A stretch of DNA of 64,000 nt from a virus (IMGVR_UViG_3300035498_000732:62689-126688), one strand, 5' to 3'. Positions 7,173-64,000 are shown, numbered from the stretch's first letter. Made by a program: numbers and translations. The notes: generated by a model not told the origin, from the letters alone.

Positions 7173-7373
7173 TCAAGCTCCTTTATTTTTATCTTCATAA
7201 TCCTCTGCATTCTTTCGAATTTGATGGATTATCCAAGCTAAATCTACTAATAGATTTAATCCATATATAGCACCATATATTAATACAAATAATTTGATCA
7301 ATGGTGTTACATATGTAAATACGAGTTCAAATGCTGCAATATATCTTTCAGTAAAGGTCTCCAAAAGTATCAT
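7173..7373 (-). CDS. Small membrane protein
   Basis: 66 aa with one hydrophobic segment; RBS aggagg. Confidence 0.6.
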   Translation of the reverse strand: MILLETFTERYIAAFELVFTYVTPLIKLFVLIYGAIYGLNLLVDLAWIIHQIRKNAEDYEDKNKGA

Positions 7374-7376
7374 ATA

Positions 7377-8615
7377 CTACACCTCCTTTAAGAGATCTAA
7401 TTGCTCTTGTAATTTATCAAGAGTATTCATCTGGTCACCTAACAGCTCTGACTTTACCTCCTTATCTGTTTTATCCATCTCTCCCCATATATCTGTAGCA
7501 GCAGATAATTTAGGATCTACTGCTAATTGAGAGAAACTAACGAAATCATTACCAGTAAATGCTTTATATATTGATTCATTATCAAATATTCCATTGGAGA
7601 ATAATGATTTATCCACACAATTCTTAGATGGATAATATAATGAATAATTGCAATCTTTTAATAAGTCTGAACCATTCTCTACTCCACATTCTGTATAGAT
7701 ATCTTGTAATAAGATATCTTTAGCCACATATAATCTTTCTTCTAAGGTTATATTATTCTGACAATGCACTAGTACTGGTTTATCTTCACAACTTATCGGC
7801 ATCATAGTCTCATTCACCCTGAAAATCTTATTTCCTTTCTCATAAGTATCATCGACTAATTGCATCTTTAACTCAGCAAGTACTTCTAATAATTGGTCGA
7901 ATTGATTATTAGTTACTCTTACATAATTAAATTCGCCATCTTCTTTTATTCTATTTTCTTTAGCAATCTGTTTCTCTCTGTATGATTCCATTGGTCGGTT
8001 ATTTGGGTTATTACCACCATCTTTAATCTCAATAATAAGATTATATGGAATAATCATCATGTCACTTATATAGTGCAAAGTTTGCCCATTATATTCATAT
8101 GGAATAATTGGACCAGGGCACATAATATCATTAGGAGAATAGCCCATTACTCTATCAAGAAACTCTAATATATTTCTCTCGTACTTTCCTGTATAAGTAT
8201 ATCTATGTCCTTTGAAGTTATATGTGCCAGAGATACTTCTATTTGCCAGCATCTTCTCTTGAAATTCTGGATCTGCTGCCAAATTCCAAGTGCCATACTT
8301 AGCCTCTTTTCTAGAGTTTACCATTTCAATATATCTTTCTTTGCACTTAGGATCTTTTGTAAGTCTATCATACCTGCAGGTCTTCTCATTCCAATCAGTT
8401 TCTCTTCCACAACCACATACACAGGTTCCATGGTCTTTCTTATTGATATAATTAAATAATACTCTTGCTGCAGAGTATCCTTGAGGAATCATATCTTGAT
8501 GGTATTTATCAATATGAGCTACAAGATTATCCTTAGTATCATGATTGCCACAATATGGACATTTATACCTTTTCTTGCTTTTAGAAACAGCCTCGTTAAG
8601 AATATATTTTGACAT
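7377..8615 (-). CDS. Zn-finger plus PD-(D/E)xK (TnsA-like) endonuclease
   Basis: CPYC-x12-H-x4-H, CVCGCG and YISD...IIEIKDGG motifs. Confidence 0.65.
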   Translation of the reverse strand: MSKYILNEAVSKSKKRYKCPYCGNHDTKDNLVAHIDKYHQDMIPQGYSAARVLFNYINKKDHGTCVCGCGRETDWNEKTCRYDRLTKDPKCKERYIEMVNSRKEAKYGTWNLAADPEFQEKMLANRSISGTYNFKGHRYTYTGKYERNILEFLDRVMGYSPNDIMCPGPIIPYEYNGQTLHYISDMMIIPYNLIIEIKDGGNNPNNRPMESYREKQIAKENRIKEDGEFNYVRVTNNQFDQLLEVLAELKMQLVDDTYEKGNKIFRVNETMMPISCEDKPVLVHCQNNITLEERLYVAKDILLQDIYTECGVENGSDLLKDCNYSLYYPSKNCVDKSLFSNGIFDNESIYKAFTGNDFVSFSQLAVDPKLSAATDIWGEMDKTDKEVKSELLGDQMNTLDKLQEQLDLLKEV

Positions 8616-9133: not shown

Positions 9134-11104
9134 ATGGCAAACATTAATGATCTCAAGACAGGACCAGCAGCCACCAATGCCCCTATTCAGATTACAGATC
9201 CTAATCTTATGGCTAAGAGAAAACCTATTAAGGTGAATTTATCTAGTCTTACAGATGATGAGTCTAATACAGAATCCACAAATACAGTGGCAAAAGAGCC
9301 TACTAGAAGAGAAAGGGTTAATGGAGCTGTAGATCTTGTAGCAGCAAATACAGTATCTGAAGTTACTAGTGATGGCACCAAGATTTTTAAGCCTACAGAT
9401 ATTCCAAAGATCAAAGATCCATATGAGAAAGAACCTGAAGTAATGGAAACACAGGTTAAAAATGAATTGCATGATGTGATTACTCGTAAGCAGGCAGAGG
9501 CTAAAGCTGAACTTGAAGCTCTTATGGCAGAGAGTGAAGTTAATGAGAAGATCGTTAAAGAAAAAGGTATTACATTTGATGAAGATGGTAATGCTATTGC
9601 TGCTGATGGAAAGGCAGCTGAGTTATCAGATGAAGATAATTTAGAGGCTGCATTAGATATTGAACTTGCTCAGATGGGAGTTTCCCATATGAATCCACCT
9701 CATGAGGATGATCATGAATATGAGACTATAGATGATGATGAGTTCAATAATCTTATGAATGATTTTGATCAGGAAAATCCTGGAGAAGAGATCAGCAGAG
9801 CACAAGCTCCAGAGCCAGTAGCTCAGGAAATTCCTCAGAATATAGTAGAGTATCATTACTATCAGGAAGGTGAACTTGAGGCAGAAGATGAGGAAGATTT
9901 GTATGATCCTGCAGAATCAGAATCTCCACAGGAAGATGAGCCGGATGAAATTGAAGATGATGTAGATGGTCTTCTTAAAGAACTTGAAGAAGCTAATAGT
10001 GATGAAGATGATGAAGATCTGGATGAGGAGGAACAGCAGAAAGAGTTTGAGGAGTTTACGCAAGAAGCTTCTAAGATTATGAACTTAGCTCCTCGTAGAT
10101 TAGATATCTCTGGATTTAAAGTAGCAGGCAAGGTATCTGCTACATCAGTATTATCATCTCTTACTTCTGGCAAAGCAATTGATAGTAGTGATTGGGCTTT
10201 GTCCAATTCCAAATTACCAATTACCATGAGCAAATTCAATGGTATTGATTTAAAGAATTTGTCTAATTTTTCTTCTGGTAGAAGAAATAGACAGAATACT
10301 GCAATGGAAAGATATAAGCTACTTTATGATCATGATCTGAATCCATATAAGCCGGATACTGTAGAGGGATGGGCTAAGACTATCTCTTCAGAAGATGAGG
10401 ATGATCTCTTCTTTGCTGTATATGATGCTACATTCCATAATGCAAATCATATTCCATATACTTGCCCAAATGAGAAATGTAATCATGCATGGATATCTGA
10501 GCATATTCCTACATCATCTATGTATAGATTCGTAGATCCTGAATTTGAGAAAGAATTTATGGCTATTAGAGATAAAGGACCAGTGAAAGGACAGCAGAGA
10601 AATATAACAACTAAGATTGTTCCTATTACTGATTCTATTGCTGTAGGAGTAAAGAATCCTGATATCTATGATAGAAGATTTGTATATGGACTTGTAGGCG
10701 GAGAATTCTACACTAAATACAGTGATGTATTGGATATTTACCCATTCATTGACCAGTTCTATAAGATTGATTCTGTAAATCAGAGACTTGAGCAGATTAT
10801 TACAGCTCCTAAGGGTAAAGAAGGAGAGCTTCTTAAGAATATTAAGAATAGAGTAATCATCTATAACCGTATTATCAAGTCATTTGATACAGATGAATAC
10901 AATCTTCTTATTGCAGTATTAGGACAGAGAGATGAGAATGAAGATAAGAAGCGCGTTGAATACTTTATTCCTGCAGCAACTTGTCCTAAATGTGGTAGAG
11001 CAGTTCCAGAACAGATCTTATCTGAGGCTAATGGAACCACTATTGAAACACAGCTTTTTACACGGCGGCCTTTGGCACTCATAGCCAATACATCGACAAC
11101 CTAG
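9134..11104 (+). CDS. Baseplate hub assembly / tail assembly chaperone (T4 gp26-like) with acidic N-terminal extension
   Basis: CPNEKC and CPKC Zn-ribbon motifs; follows the gp25-like gene; long D/E-rich linker. Confidence 0.55.
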   Translation: MANINDLKTGPAATNAPIQITDPNLMAKRKPIKVNLSSLTDDESNTESTNTVAKEPTRRERVNGAVDLVAANTVSEVTSDGTKIFKPTDIPKIKDPYEKEPEVMETQVKNELHDVITRKQAEAKAELEALMAESEVNEKIVKEKGITFDEDGNAIAADGKAAELSDEDNLEAALDIELAQMGVSHMNPPHEDDHEYETIDDDEFNNLMNDFDQENPGEEISRAQAPEPVAQEIPQNIVEYHYYQEGELEAEDEEDLYDPAESESPQEDEPDEIEDDVDGLLKELEEANSDEDDEDLDEEEQQKEFEEFTQEASKIMNLAPRRLDISGFKVAGKVSATSVLSSLTSGKAIDSSDWALSNSKLPITMSKFNGIDLKNLSNFSSGRRNRQNTAMERYKLLYDHDLNPYKPDTVEGWAKTISSEDEDDLFFAVYDATFHNANHIPYTCPNEKCNHAWISEHIPTSSMYRFVDPEFEKEFMAIRDKGPVKGQQRNITTKIVPITDSIAVGVKNPDIYDRRFVYGLVGGEFYTKYSDVLDIYPFIDQFYKIDSVNQRLEQIITAPKGKEGELLKNIKNRVIIYNRIIKSFDTDEYNLLIAVLGQRDENEDKKRVEYFIPAATCPKCGRAVPEQILSEANGTTIETQLFTRRPLALIANTSTT

Positions 11105-11370
11105 TACGTGTAGGTAAATATTGTAAGGGATTTGCTTCGATAGATCAACTTCAACAGATGCCATATGAGGATTTTCATGAGTTGTTCTATCAAGCATATG
11201 TCCAAGCAACGACTGACGAAGGCCAGAAACAAAGAGAGGCAGAAGAAATAGAAGAGCAATTTGAAGAAATGGTACCTCAGCAGTACTACGGATCGACTGA
11301 CATGGGAATAGCTATTAAGAATGCCGTAGAAGCAGAAAAGAATAAACCTAAGAAACCGCCTAGGAAATAA
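11047..11370 (+). CDS. Probable -1 frameshift extension of 9134..11104
   Basis: -1 frame opens after TGA at 11044, 7 nt before CTTTTTA, and stays open to 11370; the ATG at 11158 has no RBS. Confidence 0.55.
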   Translation, partial: NTAFYTAAFGTHSQYIDNLVRVGKYCKGFASIDQLQQMPYEDFHELFYQAYVQATTDEGQKQREAEEIEEQFEEMVPQQYYGSTDMGIAIKNAVEAEKNKPKKPPRK

Positions 11371-11389
11371 AAGGAGAATATAAGAATAG

Positions 11390-11725
11390 ATGAATGATAG
11401 AATTTCATATATTAATTCCATTAATTTCCATGGTCAGCATGATAATATGGCCCCAACAATCATCAGATACTTTGATGAAACCATGGGGTTATATGGTATA
11501 ATAGGAAATAATACGATATCCATAGACGTTACTAATACAGATGGATCTCTTATTTTTGGTATCAATTTGAGAACTGTTTCTGATGCTGACACATTGGAAT
11601 CTACTTTAGAACAATGCAGTAGTCCAATAAGTATATATGGAAGATCTTTTTCAATTTCATATACTAGACATAATGATTTGGAAATACATATTACAGTGAG
11701 TCCAGTAAGTGCATCTCCTCTTTGA
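11390..11725 (+). CDS. Hypothetical protein
   Basis: 111 aa; RBS aaggag; terminator hairpin at 11710-11740. Confidence 0.7.
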   Translation: MNDRISYINSINFHGQHDNMAPTIIRYFDETMGLYGIIGNNTISIDVTNTDGSLIFGINLRTVSDADTLESTLEQCSSPISIYGRSFSISYTRHNDLEIHITVSPVSASPL

Positions 11726-11771
11726 GGGGATGCATTTTTTGCACATATTATTAATTTAAAGGAGGTGCTGT

Positions 11772-41236: not shown

Positions 41237-41806
41237 TCATTGTGCTGTTTCTCTGAACTTGTCTGTCATGCAGATGTCATTAATTTTAACATGAATGACA
41301 TCATCCCGCTGCTCTGGCTTCACCTTAGCCCTATTCATTTTGCTAAGGCGTTTATCCAGCTGACGAGCAACCTCAGCAGCAACACGATGCTGGAATTGCT
41401 CCTCCTCCTGGGTTTTCCTTATTGCCTCCATGCGGCTTTCGTATCTAGAAAGATACTCATCTCGCATTTCTGCAATGGTGTCGACGATAAGATTCCACTC
41501 GTCTCTATTGTAGACTACAGACTGCAGGCCATTGTTGTTGATGTAGCATACCTGCATGTAAACCTTACCGTGTATAACCTTCTTGTGGAAGGTAAACCGG
41601 AACTTACCACATGTTCCAAAACCGTTGGTAGTTCCGTTAATAATCATCTCAATACCGCGCCCTGTAATGGGCTCGCCATCGATATGAATGTACTTGCTGT
41701 CTGCGCAAGTACGGTCTTTGAGCTCTCGCTCGATTTGGCCCAACAGGATCTTAGAAACCTGCTGTTTCCTACCAACTACTACTACAGCATTTGCATTTTT
41801 CTTCAT
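41237..41806 (-). CDS. Hypothetical early protein (paralog of 42041..42508)
   Basis: Shares F.F.K...V.Y....GL..V.Y...EW with its neighbour. Confidence 0.65.
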   Translation of the reverse strand: MKKNANAVVVVGRKQQVSKILLGQIERELKDRTCADSKYIHIDGEPITGRGIEMIINGTTNGFGTCGKFRFTFHKKVIHGKVYMQVCYINNNGLQSVVYNRDEWNLIVDTIAEMRDEYLSRYESRMEAIRKTQEEEQFQHRVAAEVARQLDKRLSKMNRAKVKPEQRDDVIHVKINDICMTDKFRETAQ

Positions 41807-42040
41807 AATGTCCTCCATTTCTCCAAGGGTGTTATTCGTTTAAGATCATTATGATCCCCCTGGTAAGCAAAACTTAGATAAGCATATTACTTATCCTGTA
41901 TTACCATGATATTATATAATTGAAAAATTGAACTTTTACATTTTTATATTCAATAAACATATAAAAAAGAAGACAAGCATATGCCTGTCTCTTTTTCCTT
42001 AGTCCTACAGTTCCACCTTCGATGGATCAGAACCTATCAG

Positions 42041-56975: not shown

Positions 56976-58880
56976 TTAATCTACTAAACCAAGCTGCAAT
57001 CTCTCTGCATCATGTTTAGCAAATTCCTCATCAGAAACGTCCAGATCTATCACGTTAGACCTGCAGAACTTATTGATCCTTTCTGCAAATCTACGAGCAT
57101 TCGTTCCAGATGCCCTGAACAGATTAGCACCGGAACTACCGAATCTGACATCCAGAACCAGCCCATCATAGAACTTATTTGCTGAAGCAAAATATGACAG
57201 ACTTGTTTTCCCAGACGTCAGAGTGAAAGCCTCTGGTGATTCGTAGTTCGAAACCTTAAACCTGATATCACACATATTACTGTCTAATACATCAGTGAAA
57301 GGCTTCATCTTCCCTACTACGATAGGGAGATCATTCTTCGGAATTCCCTTGTAATCTACATGGGAGAAGAATGATCTATTTATGATCGTTTTATTATTGT
57401 CCCGATGCCAGTCTGTTTCACTGTACTGACCATGCTGGACAAGCCTATCCGCATTTTCAAATTCGCAGTATATATCATACAGCGGATTCAAATCAAAGTT
57501 TGATCCACTGCGTGGTATTACCACTGAAAAATACGGATTTATTTTTGCAGGATCAATATAAAATACTCCTGCTGGTGCAGCATCATCTCTGTTGCTGACC
57601 TCGGCCACTACGAGGCCATGATAATTTCCAAAATTCACCTTCTGATCTTCTCGTAGTAGCTTTCGGAAACCATCAAGTTCTGGATATGACTTGAGTAGCC
57701 TCCTATTAGTCACGCTAGCACTATCTGGCACTAACGCGTGAGGATTGTTAGCCCTGGTTCGCTCCTCAATCCTCTCATCTTGGGTGATCTTATCGGCATC
57801 ACCCTTTGCACGACCGATAGTAGCAACGATATTATCATCTGCCACCGCATCGCGCACTTTATTAATTAGTGCATCAACAGAATCCTTGTTGGCATTAAGA
57901 TAGGCAACAATGGATTTTGCTACATCTTTGCTAATGAGATTTTCAAAAATTGTAGCAATAAACTTAATATAATCATCTGATGTGATTTTATTAAGTATAG
58001 CACTGAAATCTTCAGTGCTGATATTGTTGATGCTTTCGCAGTCTACATTGCCAATATAATCATTCAGTACATGAATCATATTGACAAGTTCCGACACATC
58101 TTTTGATAATGCTGACTTAGTGTCATTATCAGCATATTTCTTAACAAGCCTTTTGTAGCTATTTATCATAAAGCCACCATGTATCTTCTGGCCTGTCAAG
58201 ATTGCCTCTGGAATCTGCTTTATAGAGTCTAGAAGCTTCCCAAACTCGTATGTTTTTAGAAGCTCATCAGCAGTTCCAGTGTAGCCAATATCAGCGGCTA
58301 CTACCTTCGCTATCTTATGTGCGAACGTATCGATCGACATATCTGATAGCAGAGTAACTACATACCCATTCTCAGAGTCTTCAGGATGCTGCTGTTCCGC
58401 AGCATCTATAATATTAGCATCTATAATATTATTATCAATGCTGGAAACAATCTCAACCGCTGGAAGCGCTCTGTCGAGTATATATTCCTCCAGTCCCATC
58501 TCAAGGCATACCTGATTATATATACCTTTTAATTCTGCCTTTTCCGGTGATCTGAAGAAAGGCATGTCATACCCAATAAATTTTCGGTACAACATGTCCT
58601 GAACAAAGAGCCTGTACTCATAGGCACTTCGTTCAATACCCTCTAGCTGGTATATGCTAGAGATCGGATAATAACCGATATTGATGGCTACTGAACCATC
58701 ATCGTTGGTTATATCCATGCGCCCTCTGTTACCAGGAATGCCATAATACTTACGGTCTTCCTTAGTAAGCTCGGACGCTTTCATGTTGGCAACCTGATAT
58801 GCCCTATATTGTTTTACAATATAATTGGCATCCTTAATACCCATTGCTTCTGCAAAATCTTTGTATTCTTTGTTATTCAT
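56976..58880 (-). CDS. Hypothetical protein (634 aa, putative early)
   Basis: RBS aaggagg; early-type AT-rich promoter near 58968. Confidence 0.75.
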   Translation of the reverse strand: MNNKEYKDFAEAMGIKDANYIVKQYRAYQVANMKASELTKEDRKYYGIPGNRGRMDITNDDGSVAINIGYYPISSIYQLEGIERSAYEYRLFVQDMLYRKFIGYDMPFFRSPEKAELKGIYNQVCLEMGLEEYILDRALPAVEIVSSIDNNIIDANIIDAAEQQHPEDSENGYVVTLLSDMSIDTFAHKIAKVVAADIGYTGTADELLKTYEFGKLLDSIKQIPEAILTGQKIHGGFMINSYKRLVKKYADNDTKSALSKDVSELVNMIHVLNDYIGNVDCESINNISTEDFSAILNKITSDDYIKFIATIFENLISKDVAKSIVAYLNANKDSVDALINKVRDAVADDNIVATIGRAKGDADKITQDERIEERTRANNPHALVPDSASVTNRRLLKSYPELDGFRKLLREDQKVNFGNYHGLVVAEVSNRDDAAPAGVFYIDPAKINPYFSVVIPRSGSNFDLNPLYDIYCEFENADRLVQHGQYSETDWHRDNNKTIINRSFFSHVDYKGIPKNDLPIVVGKMKPFTDVLDSNMCDIRFKVSNYESPEAFTLTSGKTSLSYFASANKFYDGLVLDVRFGSSGANLFRASGTNARRFAERINKFCRSNVIDLDVSDEEFAKHDAERLQLGLVD

Positions 58881-59017: not shown

Positions 59018-59141
59018 CCGTTTTTTTTTTTACATATTTATAATGTATCTATTATAAAATATTATATGGAGGTAATTTAAATATGATTGATATGAATCAA
59101 AGTATTGAGGCCATTATGCAAGAATGTGACTATATTGCTGA
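59018..59141 (+). repeat. Left arm of ~124-bp inverted repeat (promoter, RBS and first 20 codons)
   Basis: Reverse complement of 59901..60025 except for one synonymous change and T11 versus T12. Confidence 0.95.
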
Positions 59142-59481
59142 GCATAAAGAAGATATTAATGATCAGTATAATATGAACAGAGCTCATGAAAGAATGTCTG
59201 GCGACCATAGATATGCAAAAGCATATAGAGCCAATAAGCAAGATACAAGAGATGTACTTAGTCAAAAGATACCAAAGAGCTATGGGGATAAACCAGAATA
59301 TCATACTAGAAGTATGGCTGATAAGAGAAAGCTTGACAGCAATCCCACAGCAAGGGCCATGAGGGATGGTTATAAGAGAGCAGCTGAAGGGAAATTATCT
59401 AGAAAAGAGATGCACAGAAATCTAGATTCACTCGGATATAAAGAATCATCTATTTTTGATGATTTATTAGATCTAGTTTAA
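59083..59481 (+). CDS. Putative internal head protein A (constant leader, basic variable core, constant tail)
   Basis: MIDMNQSIEAIMQECDYIAE...ESSIFDDLLDLV. Confidence 0.7.
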   Translation: MIDMNQSIEAIMQECDYIAEHKEDINDQYNMNRAHERMSGDHRYAKAYRANKQDTRDVLSQKIPKSYGDKPEYHTRSMADKRKLDSNPTARAMRDGYKRAAEGKLSRKEMHRNLDSLGYKESSIFDDLLDLV

Positions 59482-59500
59482 TAAAAAAAAAAATACATAG

Positions 59501-59522
59501 GAGTGCTAATATATTAGCACTC
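59501..59522. terminator. Bidirectional terminator between convergent paralogs
   Basis: Perfect palindrome gagtgctaatatattagcactc flanked by A- and T-tracts. Confidence 0.8.
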
Positions 59523-59527
59523 TTATT

Positions 59528-59959
59528 TTATACTAAATCAAGTAAGTCATCAAAGATAGATGATTCATTAGCTGCTCTTCTAGCACGCTTTCTATCATTG
59601 CTGTTTCCAGATACTCCATGGAACTCCTGCTTTTTCCTTCTCCATTCTTCATGTTTATTATTTGATATATCCGCTTTATCTTTATTTTTCTTTAGAGCAC
59701 TTACAGTAGATCGATAATCTTCTGCAGTTTTCATTCCGCCAGTTTGCTTACGCTCCACTGCACGCGCTCTGCCACTTCTATACCCTTTTTCCAGATATCC
59801 AGCATCATTTCCATTCCATCTCAAACCATATTCGTGCTTATTAGTACCATATGACATATTTCTTCCAACACTATATCCTATCTCACTATCGCCTTTCACT
59901 TCAGCAATATAATCACATTCTTGCATAATGGCCTCAATACTTTGATTCATATCAATCAT
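59528..59959 (-). CDS. Putative internal head protein B
   Basis: Same 20-aa leader and 12-aa tail as 59083..59481; unrelated core. Confidence 0.7.
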   Translation of the reverse strand: MIDMNQSIEAIMQECDYIAEVKGDSEIGYSVGRNMSYGTNKHEYGLRWNGNDAGYLEKGYRSGRARAVERKQTGGMKTAEDYRSTVSALKKNKDKADISNNKHEEWRRKKQEFHGVSGNSNDRKRARRAANESSIFDDLLDLV

Positions 59960-60025
59960 ATTTAAATTACCTCCATATAATATTTTATAATAGATACATT
60001 ATAAATATGTAAAAAAAAAAAACGG
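59901..60025 (-). repeat. Right arm of ~124-bp inverted repeat
   Basis: See 59018..59141. Confidence 0.95.
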
Positions 60026-60048
60026 TAAAATGTAATATTTTATATATT

Positions 60049-60124
60049 CTGTATTTACGAGTTCTGGCACTTTCACAGTACCCAAGGGCGTTAAGAGCAT
60101 CGATGTCTTCTGTGTAGGTGGTGG
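60049..60124 (+). repeat. 76-bp cassette-head repeat, copy A
   Basis: ctgtatttacgagttctggcactttcacagt(a/g)cccaagggcgttaagagcatcgatgtcttctgtgtaggtggtgg. Confidence 0.97.
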
Positions 60125-60941
60125 AGGATCAGGAGGAAAAAGTTATTATAAGTATGGTTATGATGGTTATGGAACGTCATACTATTATTTTAGTGGCCAT
60201 GGTGGGGCAGGCGGAATTACTAAAACAGTGACTTCAACTGTTACACCTGGAGAAAAAATAAGTGTGTCTATTGGATCTGGTGGAAATGCAAGTAATGCAC
60301 CTGGTGGTGGTAAAATGGGTGGTGCATATGGATCTGATACACAAGTTAATCATGGCAGTGAATTTAATTCATCAAAGATTTCTGTAGCATATGGAGGTGG
60401 AACTGTTATGTATGATAGCAGTTCACAATCTCAAATATTTACTAGCAATAGGGATTACACCTTTACACGAAATGGTGGCAGTGGAGGGGGTGCAGGTGCA
60501 AATAAATATTACTACGGAGAACAAGGCTTTAGTAATTATGGATATCCAACATACGCTGGTTATGATGGAAAAGGTGATCGAAGTGATGCATATAGTACTT
60601 CATTTTATGGTAACACTGGCCAAGGAACCACTACACGATACTTTGGTGAGTCTAATGGTACACTCTATGCTAGTGGAGGTGGTGGCGGAGGATACAATTT
60701 TTGGAGTAATGGAACAAATTACACTTTTTTAGATTATCACTTTAATGCATATGGGGCAAATGGCGGCTACAAATACACAGGAATGTTTTCTTCTGCTAAT
60801 ATATATTACAGTGCCGATAGTGCAAATTCAAATACTGGCAATGGCGGTGGAGGAGCTGCTATGGGAGAATATGACTATATAGATGAATGTGGAGGATCAG
60901 GTGGATCTGGAATAGCCATTATACGTTGGGGAAAGAAATAA
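60051..60941 (+). other. Silent glycine-rich adhesin cassette A (no start codon or RBS)
   Basis: Frame open from VFTSSGTFTVPKG to AIIRWGKK; in-frame TAA at 60033 upstream. Confidence 0.85.
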
Positions 60942-61014
60942 AAAGAGAATATAATAGAGAGCACTATTAATAGTGCTCTCTTTATTTTTATTTACCCCAT
61001 CTTATTATTGCAAC
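60924..61014 (+). repeat. ~91-bp direct repeat (3' ends of cassettes plus palindromic terminator), second copy at 63002..63093
   Basis: cgttggggaaagaaataa...agagagcactattaatagtgctctct...ttattattgcaac; two differences between copies. Confidence 0.9.
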
Positions 61015-61778
61015 TCCACTACCACCATATTTTACTCCACTACTAGCACCATTTCCTGTTCCAGCAGACGGAGTACTGTAGCTTCCTCCAGAATAATTAT
61101 ACCCATCACCTCCGGTAGAGTAGAGTGTTCCATTACTCTCTCCGAAGTATCTTGTAGTGGTACCTTGGCCTTTGCAATATCTTAAACCGCTATAATATAT
61201 AGCATGATATAAATTGTCTCTACCATAATATTGGTAATAATCATAAGGTGTTGATGTACACCTTATATATCCATCTCCTCCATCTTTACCACCATACCCA
61301 GTAAATATTGTATAGCTAACTAAATATGGGGTACTACCTGCATTACTAAGAACCATACCGCATCCACCACTTCCTCCACTCCCTCCCATAATTGCTGTAC
61401 TATATATATATGCTGAAGGGTAATAGCATACATAGTAGCAAGATGTGCCATTACCATATCCATTTGATCCAGCACCACCTCCTTTAGCTGTGCAAAAAGA
61501 TCCAACAGATGTGTCACCACCATAGTTGGTACTTGACCACGAATCCGCTTTTCCGCCAGGAGCAATAGTCACCGCAATAGATTGGCCTGGAGTTACAGAT
61601 ATACCAGATTTAGTTGCAGTATAGCCTCCACCGCCACCACCAGATGGCTGATTTGAACTGGCATTAGGCCCATGGCCTTCCCACCCGCTACCCCCACCAC
61701 CTACACAGAAGACATCGATGCTCTTAACGCCCTTGGGCACTGTGAAAGTGCCAGAACTCGTAAATACAGTTTCCCCAG
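60988..61778 (-). other. Silent glycine-rich adhesin cassette B
   Basis: GETVFTSSGTFTVPKG...AIIRWGK; in-frame TAA at 61804-61806 upstream and no ATG/RBS. Confidence 0.85.
61694..61769 (-). repeat. 76-bp cassette-head repeat, copy B
   Basis: Identical to copy C; match to C extends 9 bp further (ctggggaaa). Confidence 0.97.
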
Positions 61779-62147
61779 TTTTCTTGAGTAAATATTGTTT
61801 TTCTTATATTGAACAGCTAATTAATAAGTCTAATATTTGTATATGGAGGTGAAATTTTTTAAGTTTCATAAAAAGAATCATTAGATATGCTACCTACTAG
61901 AATATGTGACATGATGATCATGCATATAAAATGACTCACCTGCACCGACTTTGCAGGTGGGCCTTATAGCCACAAAATACTATAAATAGGAGGTTTTATT
62001 ATATGGCTATTTATGTAGGTGTTAATGGAGTGCCTAAAGAGGTAACCGCTGTATATGTAGGTGTAAATGGTACTCCTAAAGAAGTAAATGAAATTTATGC
62101 AGGGAAAAGCAATAGCCCTGCACAAGTGTATAGTGCCGCTGCTGCGC
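61779..62147 (+). promoter_or_regulatory. Putative invertible expression segment: promoter motifs, RBS and constant 5' coding region
   Basis: aaca-gctaat-taat (61812), hairpin at 61935-61961, caca-aaatac-tata (61971), RBS aggagg, ATG at 62003; bracketed by inverted copies B and C. Confidence 0.75.
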
Positions 62148-63019
62148 CTGGGGAAACTGTATTTACGAGTTCTGGCACTTTCACAGTGCCCAAGGGCGTT
62201 AAGAGCATCGATGTCTTCTGTGTAGGTGGTGGAGGAGGTGGAACTCCACATTGCTATAGTGGAGGTGGCGGAGGGTACACTACTACTACAAAAGCGGCGT
62301 CGGTGACTCCTGGACAGTCTATTGCGGTGACTATAGGAACATGCAGTTATTTTAGTAGAAATTATGGAGGCCCCTACGAATACTATGCAAATGGAACAAG
62401 TACCAGTGTGGGAAGCATATGCACTGCAAAAGGTGGATATGGATCTAACCATGGATATTATCAATATGATTATTCTTGTAGCGGAGGTTCTGCAGGTGGA
62501 GTTAGTATAACATCTAAATATCCTGCTTATAATACATCTAATTATGCATTAACAGTTGGTAATGATGGAGGCTCAAATGGCGGCTTTAGTAAAAATGATA
62601 TACAAGGATATTACACTGATGCTAAATCTTTTAATGCTTACTTTAATGTAGTTTCCTATCATGTATCTGAAGGCCAAGGTACCACTACAAGATATTTTGG
62701 TGAGTCTAATGGAACACTCTATGCAGGAGGTGGTGCTGGCGCTGGGATAAATTTTTCATCTGGCTCTGTTTATATAAGTATGGCTACTCCAGCAAGCGGA
62801 GCTGATACATACGTATATAAATATTATACCAGAAGAGTTGCATATGGCGGTGATGGAGGTGGTGGAAACGGACAGTTATATAGCGATTATTCTACTGTCG
62901 TATCATATGCAGTACCAGGCTCAGCAAATACTGGAGGTGGAGGCGGCGCTGTTGGTAGTGCAGATACATATTCAGTTGGTGGCTCTGGAATTGCTATTAT
63001 TCGTTGGGGAAAGAAATAA
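62003..63019 (+). CDS. Expressed glycine-rich adhesin / receptor-binding tip protein (constant N-terminus plus cassette C)
   Basis: Repeated YVGVNG N-terminus, then polyglycine motifs alternating with Tyr-rich variable loops. Confidence 0.75.
   Translation: MAIYVGVNGVPKEVTAVYVGVNGTPKEVNEIYAGKSNSPAQVYSAAAAPGETVFTSSGTFTVPKGVKSIDVFCVGGGGGGTPHCYSGGGGGYTTTTKAASVTPGQSIAVTIGTCSYFSRNYGGPYEYYANGTSTSVGSICTAKGGYGSNHGYYQYDYSCSGGSAGGVSITSKYPAYNTSNYALTVGNDGGSNGGFSKNDIQGYYTDAKSFNAYFNVVSYHVSEGQGTTTRYFGESNGTLYAGGGAGAGINFSSGSVYISMATPASGADTYVYKYYTRRVAYGGDGGGGNGQLYSDYSTVVSYAVPGSANTGGGGGAVGSADTYSVGGSGIAIIRWGKK
62157..62232 (+). repeat. 76-bp cassette-head repeat, copy C
   Basis: Lies inside the expressed gene at the constant/variable junction. 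Confidence 0.97.
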
Positions 63020-63066
63020 AATAGAGAATATAATAGAGAGCGCTATTAATAGTGCTCTCTTTATTT

Positions 63067-63831
63067 TTATTTACCCCATCTTATTATTGCAACACCACTA
63101 CCGCCATATACATAAACTTCTGATACTTTTGAATAGTAGAAAGAATTTGAAGGCCCACCACCAGCTCCACCACCAGTTGCATAACTTCCATTACAGCATG
63201 CATTACCTCCGCCTCCTGCTCCTCCACTAGCGCCTTCATATCCTTTAACTAAAGAGTCGCCAGCAAAAAAAGTATCGCAATAAAGTCTAGCAATACCGCC
63301 ACCGCCACCTGCATAAAGGGTACCATTACTCTCTCCGAAGTATCTTGTAGTGGTACCTTGGCCTTTGCCATTTGGACTTGGATTAATAAATGCTGTAGCA
63401 CTTTCATATGTTTTATATACATATGTACTTTTATAATCTTTCCCATCAGAACCATCGCTACCGCCATTACCAGGTATAGTACAATATAATACACTACTAT
63501 CTCTACAATATACACCACCTCCACCTCCAGAACCGCCAAATGATATTGGTGAAGTGCCACTACTGTAATAGGCATACGAGTATCCACCTTTTGCAGTGCA
63601 ATATGACCCCACTAAAGTCTCATTACCAGCAGCATATGAACCAGCCCCTACTGTAACTGATATTTTACTTTTAGGAGTTACAGATATATTTTTAACAGTT
63701 TTAGTATAGCCTCCACCACCTGCAGTACATGCATCATAGCATCCTCCTCCACCACCTACACAGAAGACATCGATGCTCTTAACGCCCTTGGGTACTGTGA
63801 AAGTGCCAGAACTCGTAAATACAGAATACAT
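63067..63831 (-). other. Glycine-rich adhesin cassette D (lacks the constant N-terminus; weak possible own ATG)
   Basis: MYS-VFTSSG...AIIRWGK; only aagga upstream as a possible RBS. Confidence 0.8.
63749..63824 (-). repeat. 76-bp cassette-head repeat, copy D
   Basis: Identical to copy A, including the A allele and upstream tatt. Confidence 0.97.
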
Positions 63832-63870
63832 TTCAATCTTCCTTATTAAAAGGTAAAATAAAAAATGGGA

Positions 63871-63910
63871 AGAAATGGCCGTACTTCTAACGCACGGCCA
63901 TTTCTTTTTA
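63871..63910. terminator. Intrinsic terminator hairpin
   Basis: agaaatggccgt-acttctaacgc-acggccatttct plus T-tract. Confidence 0.7.
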
Positions 63911-64000
63911 TATGTAATAAAATATATTCATTTCTTTTTTTGGGGTTGGAATAAAAATATACATAATTGGAAATAATTAATATATAAAGAAAAAAAGAAG

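Follow-up and report, generated by a model that had tools for sequence, protein, structure and literature searches.

Can one expression site in a phage genome be offered, through recombination, to several alternative receptor-binding heads? This question is raised by positions 60042-63831 of the DNA here analysed (hereafter the window, a stretch of 64,000 nucleotides corresponding to the final 64 kb of the 126,688-bp IMG/VR contig IMGVR_UViG_3300035498_000732), in which four Gly_rich_2 (PF21722) cassettes are arranged in the order A(+) B(-) C(+) D(-). These four paralogous cassettes, with their order and positions, had been claimed in an original prediction made by a model from the sequence alone, and all were recovered. 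The box that opens every cassette, the single anchor-bearing expression site, the coding integrity of cassettes devoid of a start and the recombinant junctions retrieved from databases together suggest, with a probability of about 0.75-0.8, that recombination switches the heads of a tail-fibre or receptor-binding protein, whichever the catalyst. The elements of the array are the following.

60042-60128, plus strand: box slot 1 (cassette A), with its 76-nt core from 60051 and a 9-nt extension, ATA-TAT-TCT
60051-60941, plus strand: cassette A, a full Gly_rich_2 head of 296 codons, stop at 60939-60941, silent in the present arrangement
60956-60981, no strand assigned: A/B hairpin terminator, common to the convergent A and B, both directions possible
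60988-61767, minus strand: cassette B, a full Gly_rich_2 head of 259 codons, stop at 60988-60990, silent
61691-61778, minus strand: box slot 2 (cassette B), core from 61767, forming an 88-nt inverted repeat with the C box
61779-62147, plus strand: expression segment of 369 nt between the B and C boxes, with hairpin, AGGAGG, ATG and most anchor codons
62003-63019, plus strand: gene C of 338 aa, joining a 52-aa anchor to Gly_rich_2 head C, stop at 63017-63019
62148-62235, plus strand: box slot 3 (cassette C), core from 62159, the anchor/head junction
63035-63060, no strand assigned: C/D hairpin terminator, common to the convergent C and D
63067-63831, minus strand: cassette D of 254 aa, with M-Y-S ahead of its Gly_rich_2 head, stop at 63067-63069, anchor-less
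63745-63831, minus strand: box slot 4 (cassette D), core from 63822, forming an 87-nt inverted repeat with the A box
63870-63906, minus strand: strong terminator hairpin immediately upstream of slot 4 (D), kept beside cassette r2 of the relative described below, 94 nt from the contig end

All four cassettes open, in the same frame, with a 76-nt box (VFTSSGTFTVPKGVKSIDVFCVGG) that varies at one A/G single-nucleotide polymorphism (SNP), as originally described, while their bodies are divergent (45-57% pairwise amino-acid identity, box counted in). Each cassette nonetheless covers positions 1-225/226 of the PF21722 profile, with 48.5-57.3 bits against a cut-off of 24.3, and a six-frame search agrees. 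In the A/D mirror pair the box extends to 87 nt (60042-60128 and 63745-63831), the 9-nt extension of A matching the D flank except for ATA in A and ATG in D, and in the B/C mirror pair it extends to 88 nt (61691-61778 and 62148-62235), including GGGGAAACT. This four-box repeat pattern is far beyond chance, because self-BLAST of the 126-kb contig finds no further repeats of at least 76 nt at 97% identity or more. By 5' flank and SNP the cassettes group as A/D and B/C, but by body and 3' end as A/C and B/D; at the 3' ends, the gene ends plus terminator of the A/B and C/D units constitute a 132-nt direct repeat, 94% identical. Reading the SNP pattern as the footprint of one particular past inversion was considered and set aside: the pattern is real, yet it leaves the crossover interval unfixed.

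Among the four cassettes, C alone carries AGGAGG 10 nt ahead of an ATG (62003) together with a 52-aa N-terminal anchor, composed of two IYVGVNGxPKEV repeats. Within the expression segment a conserved hairpin (61937-61959) precedes the AGGAGG (61987-61992) and the start codon, and the last codons of the anchor are located in the box extension. The predicted fusion of C to a ribosome-binding site (RBS) and an N-terminus of about 50 residues thus holds, while the promoter attributed to it found no support: in a sigma-70 scan, the best match (11/12) faces leftward from 62025. That match, which is also the best sigma-70-like one of the region (61998-62025, minus strand; TTAACA, 16 nt, TATAAT), overlaps the start codon of C and is directed toward the hairpin at 61937-61959 and cassette B. 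A and B are start-less, as had been stated: an in-frame stop lies 6 codons ahead of the box in A and 13 codons ahead in B, and no ATG, GTG or TTG with a Shine-Dalgarno sequence was found upstream of either. On the contrary, D is not silent: it possesses its own ATG (63831; M-Y-S-box) behind a weak AAGGAAG and right after the strong terminator hairpin, a start overlooked in the first reading.

In the arrangement proposed, one anchor-bearing expression site (RBS, ATG and 52-aa anchor) would serve four heads. Since the boxes share one frame and are mutually inverted, a crossover between two boxes would invert the intervening DNA and yield in-frame fusions. Crossing B with C would flip the 369-nt expression segment onto B, and crossing C with D would load D behind the anchor; A would be loaded by A x B followed by B x C. 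An A x D event would flip the entire 3.6-kb array and place A behind the anchor-less second ATG at the right flank. Catalysis would most likely be provided by general homologous recombination and gene conversion, using host or phage machinery, rather than by a dedicated invertase.

Proteins joining an array body to a different upstream part were found by inspecting the members of 90% protein clusters, the contigs with recombinant junctions being short (993, 1309, 1353 and 1406 bp). P0121, on a 993-bp JGI contig, consists of M-Y-S followed by cassette A (298/298 identical), the corresponding codon in the window being an ATA that follows a stop; because M-Y-S is the D-slot start, this is the junction that an A x D event would produce. 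The unaltered D protein (P0051) occurs on 3 contigs. P0006, from a 1309-bp contig and cut at the contig edge, consists of VKPGE plus T plus the body of r2 (280/280 identical), r2 being one of the six cassettes of a related phage (locus L005), where it sits behind a silent flank ending in KSIL-T; VKPGET is the anchor end, so the junction is as expected from flipping the r2-r3 segment. A third phage contributes P0126, with the anchor, and P0009, with an anchor-unrelated flank, whose bodies are 247/247 identical from the first box residue. In a fourth group, where one anchor is found on at least 5 different bodies, the bodies of P0128 and P0130 are 95% identical, one being anchor-fused on a 113-kb contig and the other anchor-less. 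Every breakpoint in these junction variants falls at the box. A search of 5.8 billion proteins for anchor+A and anchor+B chimeras yielded neither, and a second copy of the P0007 body was likewise not found. These four cases bear out the earlier proposal that the heads are exchangeable modules joined at the box to one anchor site, and cassette exchange at the box appears well supported by the sequences compared. That such exchange proceeds as reciprocal inversion, at a rate useful within phage populations and through the catalyst proposed, we infer; the heads would likewise differ in receptor specificity, which would probably enable the virus to vary the bacteria it binds.

Exchange at the box is also reflected in its evolution. 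When the ten cassettes (the four described here and the six of the relative) are aligned by codon, DNA identity over the first 20 codons reaches 98-100% among the four copies of the window and 100% among the six of the relative, and drops to 76.7% between the two genomes, with differences that are nearly all synonymous. The rest of the cassettes, including a strongly conserved GQGTTTRYFGES motif, displays 35-60% nucleotide identity, equal within and between genomes. By this comparison the box is under concerted evolution. Tandem Gly_rich_2 paralogs of other phage contigs (loci L015, L018, L019 and L071), all on one strand and with long N-termini of their own, served as a control; their boxes differ at many synonymous sites and are not homogenised, which indicates that protein constraint alone is insufficient to explain box identity.

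None of the six start-less cassettes of the two phages contains an in-frame stop, whereas each of the other five frames has 5-32, and 0 of 20,000 shuffles stayed open. Identity by codon position is 0.53/0.55/0.39 for A versus B and 0.57/0.54/0.46 for C versus D, the third position being the most diverged in both pairs, and the Pfam matches of the silent A and B are full-length and on par with those of C and D. These observations support the view that start-less cassettes have been maintained as coding sequence.

The related phage, IMGVR_UViG_3300035498_000640, shares with the window's contig an RNA polymerase (RNAP) beta subunit (83% identity) and a flanking gene of 246 aa (73% identity). Its syntenic site contains six cassettes, r1-r6, two with the anchor and four start-less. 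The pair r4|r5 is laid out like B|C, with a silent cassette, a 325-nt segment and an expressed cassette; this segment is orthologous to the 369-nt one between B and C, with 5' leader and hairpin conserved. Comparison of cassette order in a relative, suggested as a check of the original prediction, thus reveals a conserved layout of silent cassette, expression segment and expressed cassette. Cassette r4 retains just the box of the family. Two more distant relatives, reached through the flanking 246-aa gene (L008 and L009), contain no Gly_rich_2 array, and a search for P0028 in GTDB genomes and IMG/VR, aimed at a complete third genome, returned no match. Between r2 and the r3 expression site, L005 displays a perfect 173-nt inverted repeat with a 166-nt AT-rich spacer (7344-7855), to whose arms positions 63953-63998 of the window are weakly similar (23/25 nt, E 0.002); by this similarity, the contig of the window may break inside a counterpart of that element. 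Between r5 and r6, within the array, L005 also contains an open reading frame (ORF) of 217 aa (11074-11727), belonging to viral hypothetical-protein clusters and with a faint RAMP-like hint (0.76); Pfam and PHROG searches with it were empty, and no homolog was found in the 126-kb contig of the window.

Regarding the catalyst, the 126-kb contig gave no match to PF00239 (Resolvase), PF00589 (Phage_integrase), PF01548 (IS110 DEDD) or PF07508 (large serine Recombinase), and the 36 kb of the relative, where about 5 and 24 kb of array flank are visible, gave none to PF00239 or PF00589. No dyad is conserved between the boxes of the two phages: the box of the window holds GCCC-AA-GGGC where the relative has TCCG-AA-AGGC at the same codons, CCAAGG here corresponding to CCGAAAGG there. 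Considering that the whole 69-88 nt is homogenised, heteroduplex-based (homologous) recombination is favoured over an enzyme acting at a fixed point, and a homogenised tract longer than typical invertase sites fits a homology-driven process. General homologous recombination is given about even odds of being what drives the switch.

A true site-specific shufflon or invertible system has to be weighed against it, in which a dedicated invertase, be it a serine enzyme of the Gin/Hin type, a tyrosine one of the Rci/Xer type or one of novel type, would cut a core inside the box and invert the segments; its gene would reside in the 48% of the genome not seen, or be an ORF that escaped recognition. 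Every well-studied phage or plasmid system of this sort (Mu, P1, p15B, R64), like the Mycoplasma vsa/vpma loci, uses a dedicated recombinase (PMC2268961, PMC9881135), vpma recombination sites have 72 nt, near the length of the box (PMC2268961), and the box begins at a sharp 5' boundary that is the same in 10/10 copies. There is also space for such a gene, with the contig stopping 169 nt after D, the right-hand neighbour of the array unseen and the uncharacterised 217-aa ORF lying inside the array of the relative. Nonetheless, invertase genes normally adjoin their segment, and both flanks are visible in the relative; together with the empty recombinase searches and the lack of a dyad-symmetric core common to the boxes of both phages, this makes a dedicated enzyme appear unlikely, and crossover at a fixed point would leave homogenisation over 69-88 nt, synonymous sites included, unexplained.

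Somewhat less likely still is a static gene family, with C and D (r3 and r5 in the relative) as the sole working genes and A and B as young relics or an archive that rarely donates by gene conversion over evolutionary time, without programmed or population-level switching. It agrees with the single arrangement present on each long contig and with D having its own start, and strain-level differences could account for the anchor-fused and silent orthologs P0128/P0130. A neighbouring gene pair provides further ground for it: at 59018-60025, two small genes (132 and 143 aa), convergent and empty in Pfam and PHROG searches, have in common an inverted repeat of about 128 nt, nearly identical in both, which spans the upstream region with its promoter-like part, a GGAGG RBS and the first 20 codons. 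Both genes having their own start, homogenisation does occur in this genome without a switch function. They share a C-terminal tail (ESSIFDDLLDLV) behind unrelated basic middles, and further paralogs are located about 28 kb upstream of the window start. Against a static family stand the cassettes themselves, as 6 of the 10 are start-less and yet open, with all family motifs kept at 35-57% mutual identity and a coding-type pattern, which would be hard to maintain without expression, and also the three junction variants with 100% identical bodies, which imply very recent exchanges. An assembly artefact, with alleles of several strains stitched through the box and the palindromic terminators, is suggested by the metagenomic origin of the contig, its 76-88-nt repeats and its end near the array; it is very improbable, considering that (i) the same architecture, with different sequences, is found in an independent assembly from another sample, (ii) a turn-around path would have placed a reversed anchor upstream of B, which the flank there is not, and (iii) the terminator palindrome has 26 nt only and the flanks are unique sequence.

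Several observations weigh against head switching by recombination. For P0121 a single ATA-to-ATG transition, a strain SNP, would suffice, and the junction variants in general might be strain SNPs or mis-oriented de Bruijn joins across inverted repeats. Both long contigs were assembled through all boxes in a single arrangement, with no alternative full-length isomer seen, so any minority isomers are not abundant. The own start of D and the two anchor sites of the relative mean that part of the family is expressed without switching. As to homology-driven catalysis in particular, the 126-kb contig, about 52% of the genome, gave no match to RecA, Rad51, RecT or ERF and hence no phage enzyme for homologous recombination, and the unseen 48% could encode an invertase.

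What is exchanged would be a receptor-binding head. The AlphaFold2 model of C, built on a 38-sequence alignment, reached a pLDDT (predicted local distance difference test) of 80.6, and Foldseek against the PDB gave as its best match 7ypx_A, the fibre of cyanophage Pam3 (E 1.3e-6), after which came chains of the Bxb1 tail tip and of the glycine-rich domain (GRD) of ALK. TM-scores to the PDB matches are modest (0.35-0.46), S16 gp38 is absent from the match list, and PHROG tail families match weakly. A BFVD search retrieved 250 matches at E <=0.001, with glycine-rich phage proteins predominating among the top 50 listed. The model supports a TNF-like/polyglycine tail-fibre receptor-binding fold for the head, in agreement with the polyglycine fold initially proposed and now checked by structure prediction, and the product of gene C is predicted to be an expressed tail-fibre or receptor-binding protein. 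In the model, the box encodes the first conserved, best-predicted beta-strands of the head.

Pam3 fibre gp24 and S16 gp38 are likewise built of an N-terminal docking part followed by a TNF-like/polyglycine head, whose distal loops are hypervariable and recognise the receptor (PMC9608196). The layout of docking part plus glycine-rich head is therefore as here; nonetheless, both are single genes with no cassette array, and their docking part is a helical bundle while a short beta-hairpin repeat forms the anchor of gene C. The same anchor and head layout is common among single-copy genes of other phage contigs, so it is the array that is special and the anchor/head design that is ordinary.

The closest functional counterparts are bacterial. 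In the Campylobacter fetus sap locus, reportedly described by Dworkin and Blaser in 1996-1997, an expression element is said to lie between opposed cassettes with a conserved 5' coding region, and nested inversion is said to select the surface protein by homologous recombination, with no dedicated invertase. The single expression element between inverted cassettes and the homology-driven nested inversion are as proposed here. Differences reside in sap being a bacterial S-layer locus, in its conserved 5' regions of hundreds of bp versus 76-88 nt in the window, and in its invertible element, which contains the promoter only and not, as here, RBS, ATG and a 52-aa anchor. The central, itself invertible constant region, which the original prediction did not recognise as described, is accordingly not new in kind, sap being one precedent.

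The vsa and vpma loci are another (PMC2268961). In Mycoplasma pulmonis vsa, inversion sets promoter, RBS and 5' coding part before silent genes that lack a 5' end, and M. agalactiae vpma and M. bovis vsp also rely on single-expression-site inversion, the 72-nt vpma sites being near-identical copies (PMC2268961). These three systems require an adjacent tyrosine recombinase (HvsR, Xer1, Mbr), none of which was found here, and their products are bacterial lipoproteins, not a phage receptor-binding protein. In layout the window nevertheless resembles vsa, vpma and sap loci, with one expression site and its 5' part, intact silent cassettes and a common junction repeat, and four silent cassettes accompany two anchor sites in the relative. 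What stands of the claimed unfamiliarity is that no phage example was found, the literature search returning no jumbo-phage or Gly_rich_2 switching case. A survey of gene-altering inversions does report phage tail genes as frequent targets (PMC9881135).

Among mobile elements, programmed tail-fibre switching is so far known from few temperate phages or plasmids with an adjacent invertase. Mu G/Gin, P1 C/Cin and p15B Min, the latter with six crossover sites and many isomers, resemble the array in choosing, by inversion, the C-terminal parts of a tail fibre with a constant N-terminus. Their constant part, on the contrary, lies outside the invertible DNA, whereas here it lies inside; their crossover sites have 26-34 bp and are dyad-symmetric with a conserved central dinucleotide, a serine invertase is adjacent, their carriers are temperate phages or plasmids, and their fibre folds are different. 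The R64/IncI shufflon (Rci, pilV) also provides several inverted cassettes as alternative C-termini to one constant N-terminus, although through 19-bp sfx sites instead of 76-88 nt of common coding DNA, with an adjacent Rci tyrosine recombinase (PF00589 giving no match here in the 126-kb contig or in the 36-kb contig of the relative), a constant region outside the shufflon and a pilus tip adhesin as product. Because the defining recombinases, and short sites of the R64 type, were looked for and not found, the locus is not filed as a shufflon or Gin/Cin member: the analogy initially drawn with R64 and Gin/Cin stands as to function, which is shufflon-like.

Concerning the carrier, an 1828-aa ORF of the contig matches phrog_3148 and phrog_14872 (RNAP beta) at E 1e-131, and the same contig encodes a major head protein and a divergent DNA polymerase of family B. 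These matches support a phiKZ/AR9-type jumbo phage, as had been supposed, with a multisubunit RNAP beta-type subunit; its genome would exceed 200 kb, a size estimated from a contig of 126,688 bp that is 52% complete according to CheckV. The AGGAGG sites, the AT-richness of the DNA and the occurrence of Lachnospiraceae among the annotated Gly_rich_2 homologs suggest that the host belongs to the Firmicutes, perhaps to the Lachnospiraceae. The box and a word from cassette A matched, among viral, metagenome and genome contigs, only the contig of the relative (records near the window being apparently masked), and the INPHARED phage collection gave zero matches to the locus.

A more far-reaching scenario, possible and on balance doubtful, would have this lytic jumbo lineage operate an invertase-free nested-inversion switch, in which a flippable segment and an anchor-less start face four to six silent heads and bursts hold a minority of virions with other specificities, possibly with a free unanchored head that has a separate role. 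If true, it would represent the equivalent, in a phage, of the antigenic-variation loci of bacteria, such as sap and vsa, and a third route of tail-fibre diversification beside Gin/Cin-type invertase segments and diversity-generating retroelements. Host range is the main limit on phage infection and therapeutic use, and switching of the heads by recombination would extend to phiKZ/AR9-type jumbo phages and to the widespread Gly_rich_2 head, probably without a dedicated recombinase. The 76-nt box would also constitute a natural in-frame anchor/head joint that tolerates unrelated heads, since r4 keeps only the box, and could inform modular fibre building.

Two further features lie elsewhere in the window. 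An ORF of 634 aa (56976-58880, minus strand), placed between a zinc-ribbon gene and the array, is absent at the corresponding spot in the relative; Pfam and PHROG family searches with it were empty and its Atlas model is of low quality (pLDDT 0.40). A repeat unit of about 140 nt is dispersed in 4 copies, at 41789-41942 of the window and at about 10.8, 11.3 and 31.4 kb of G000, which are 84-91% identical and are found in both orientations.

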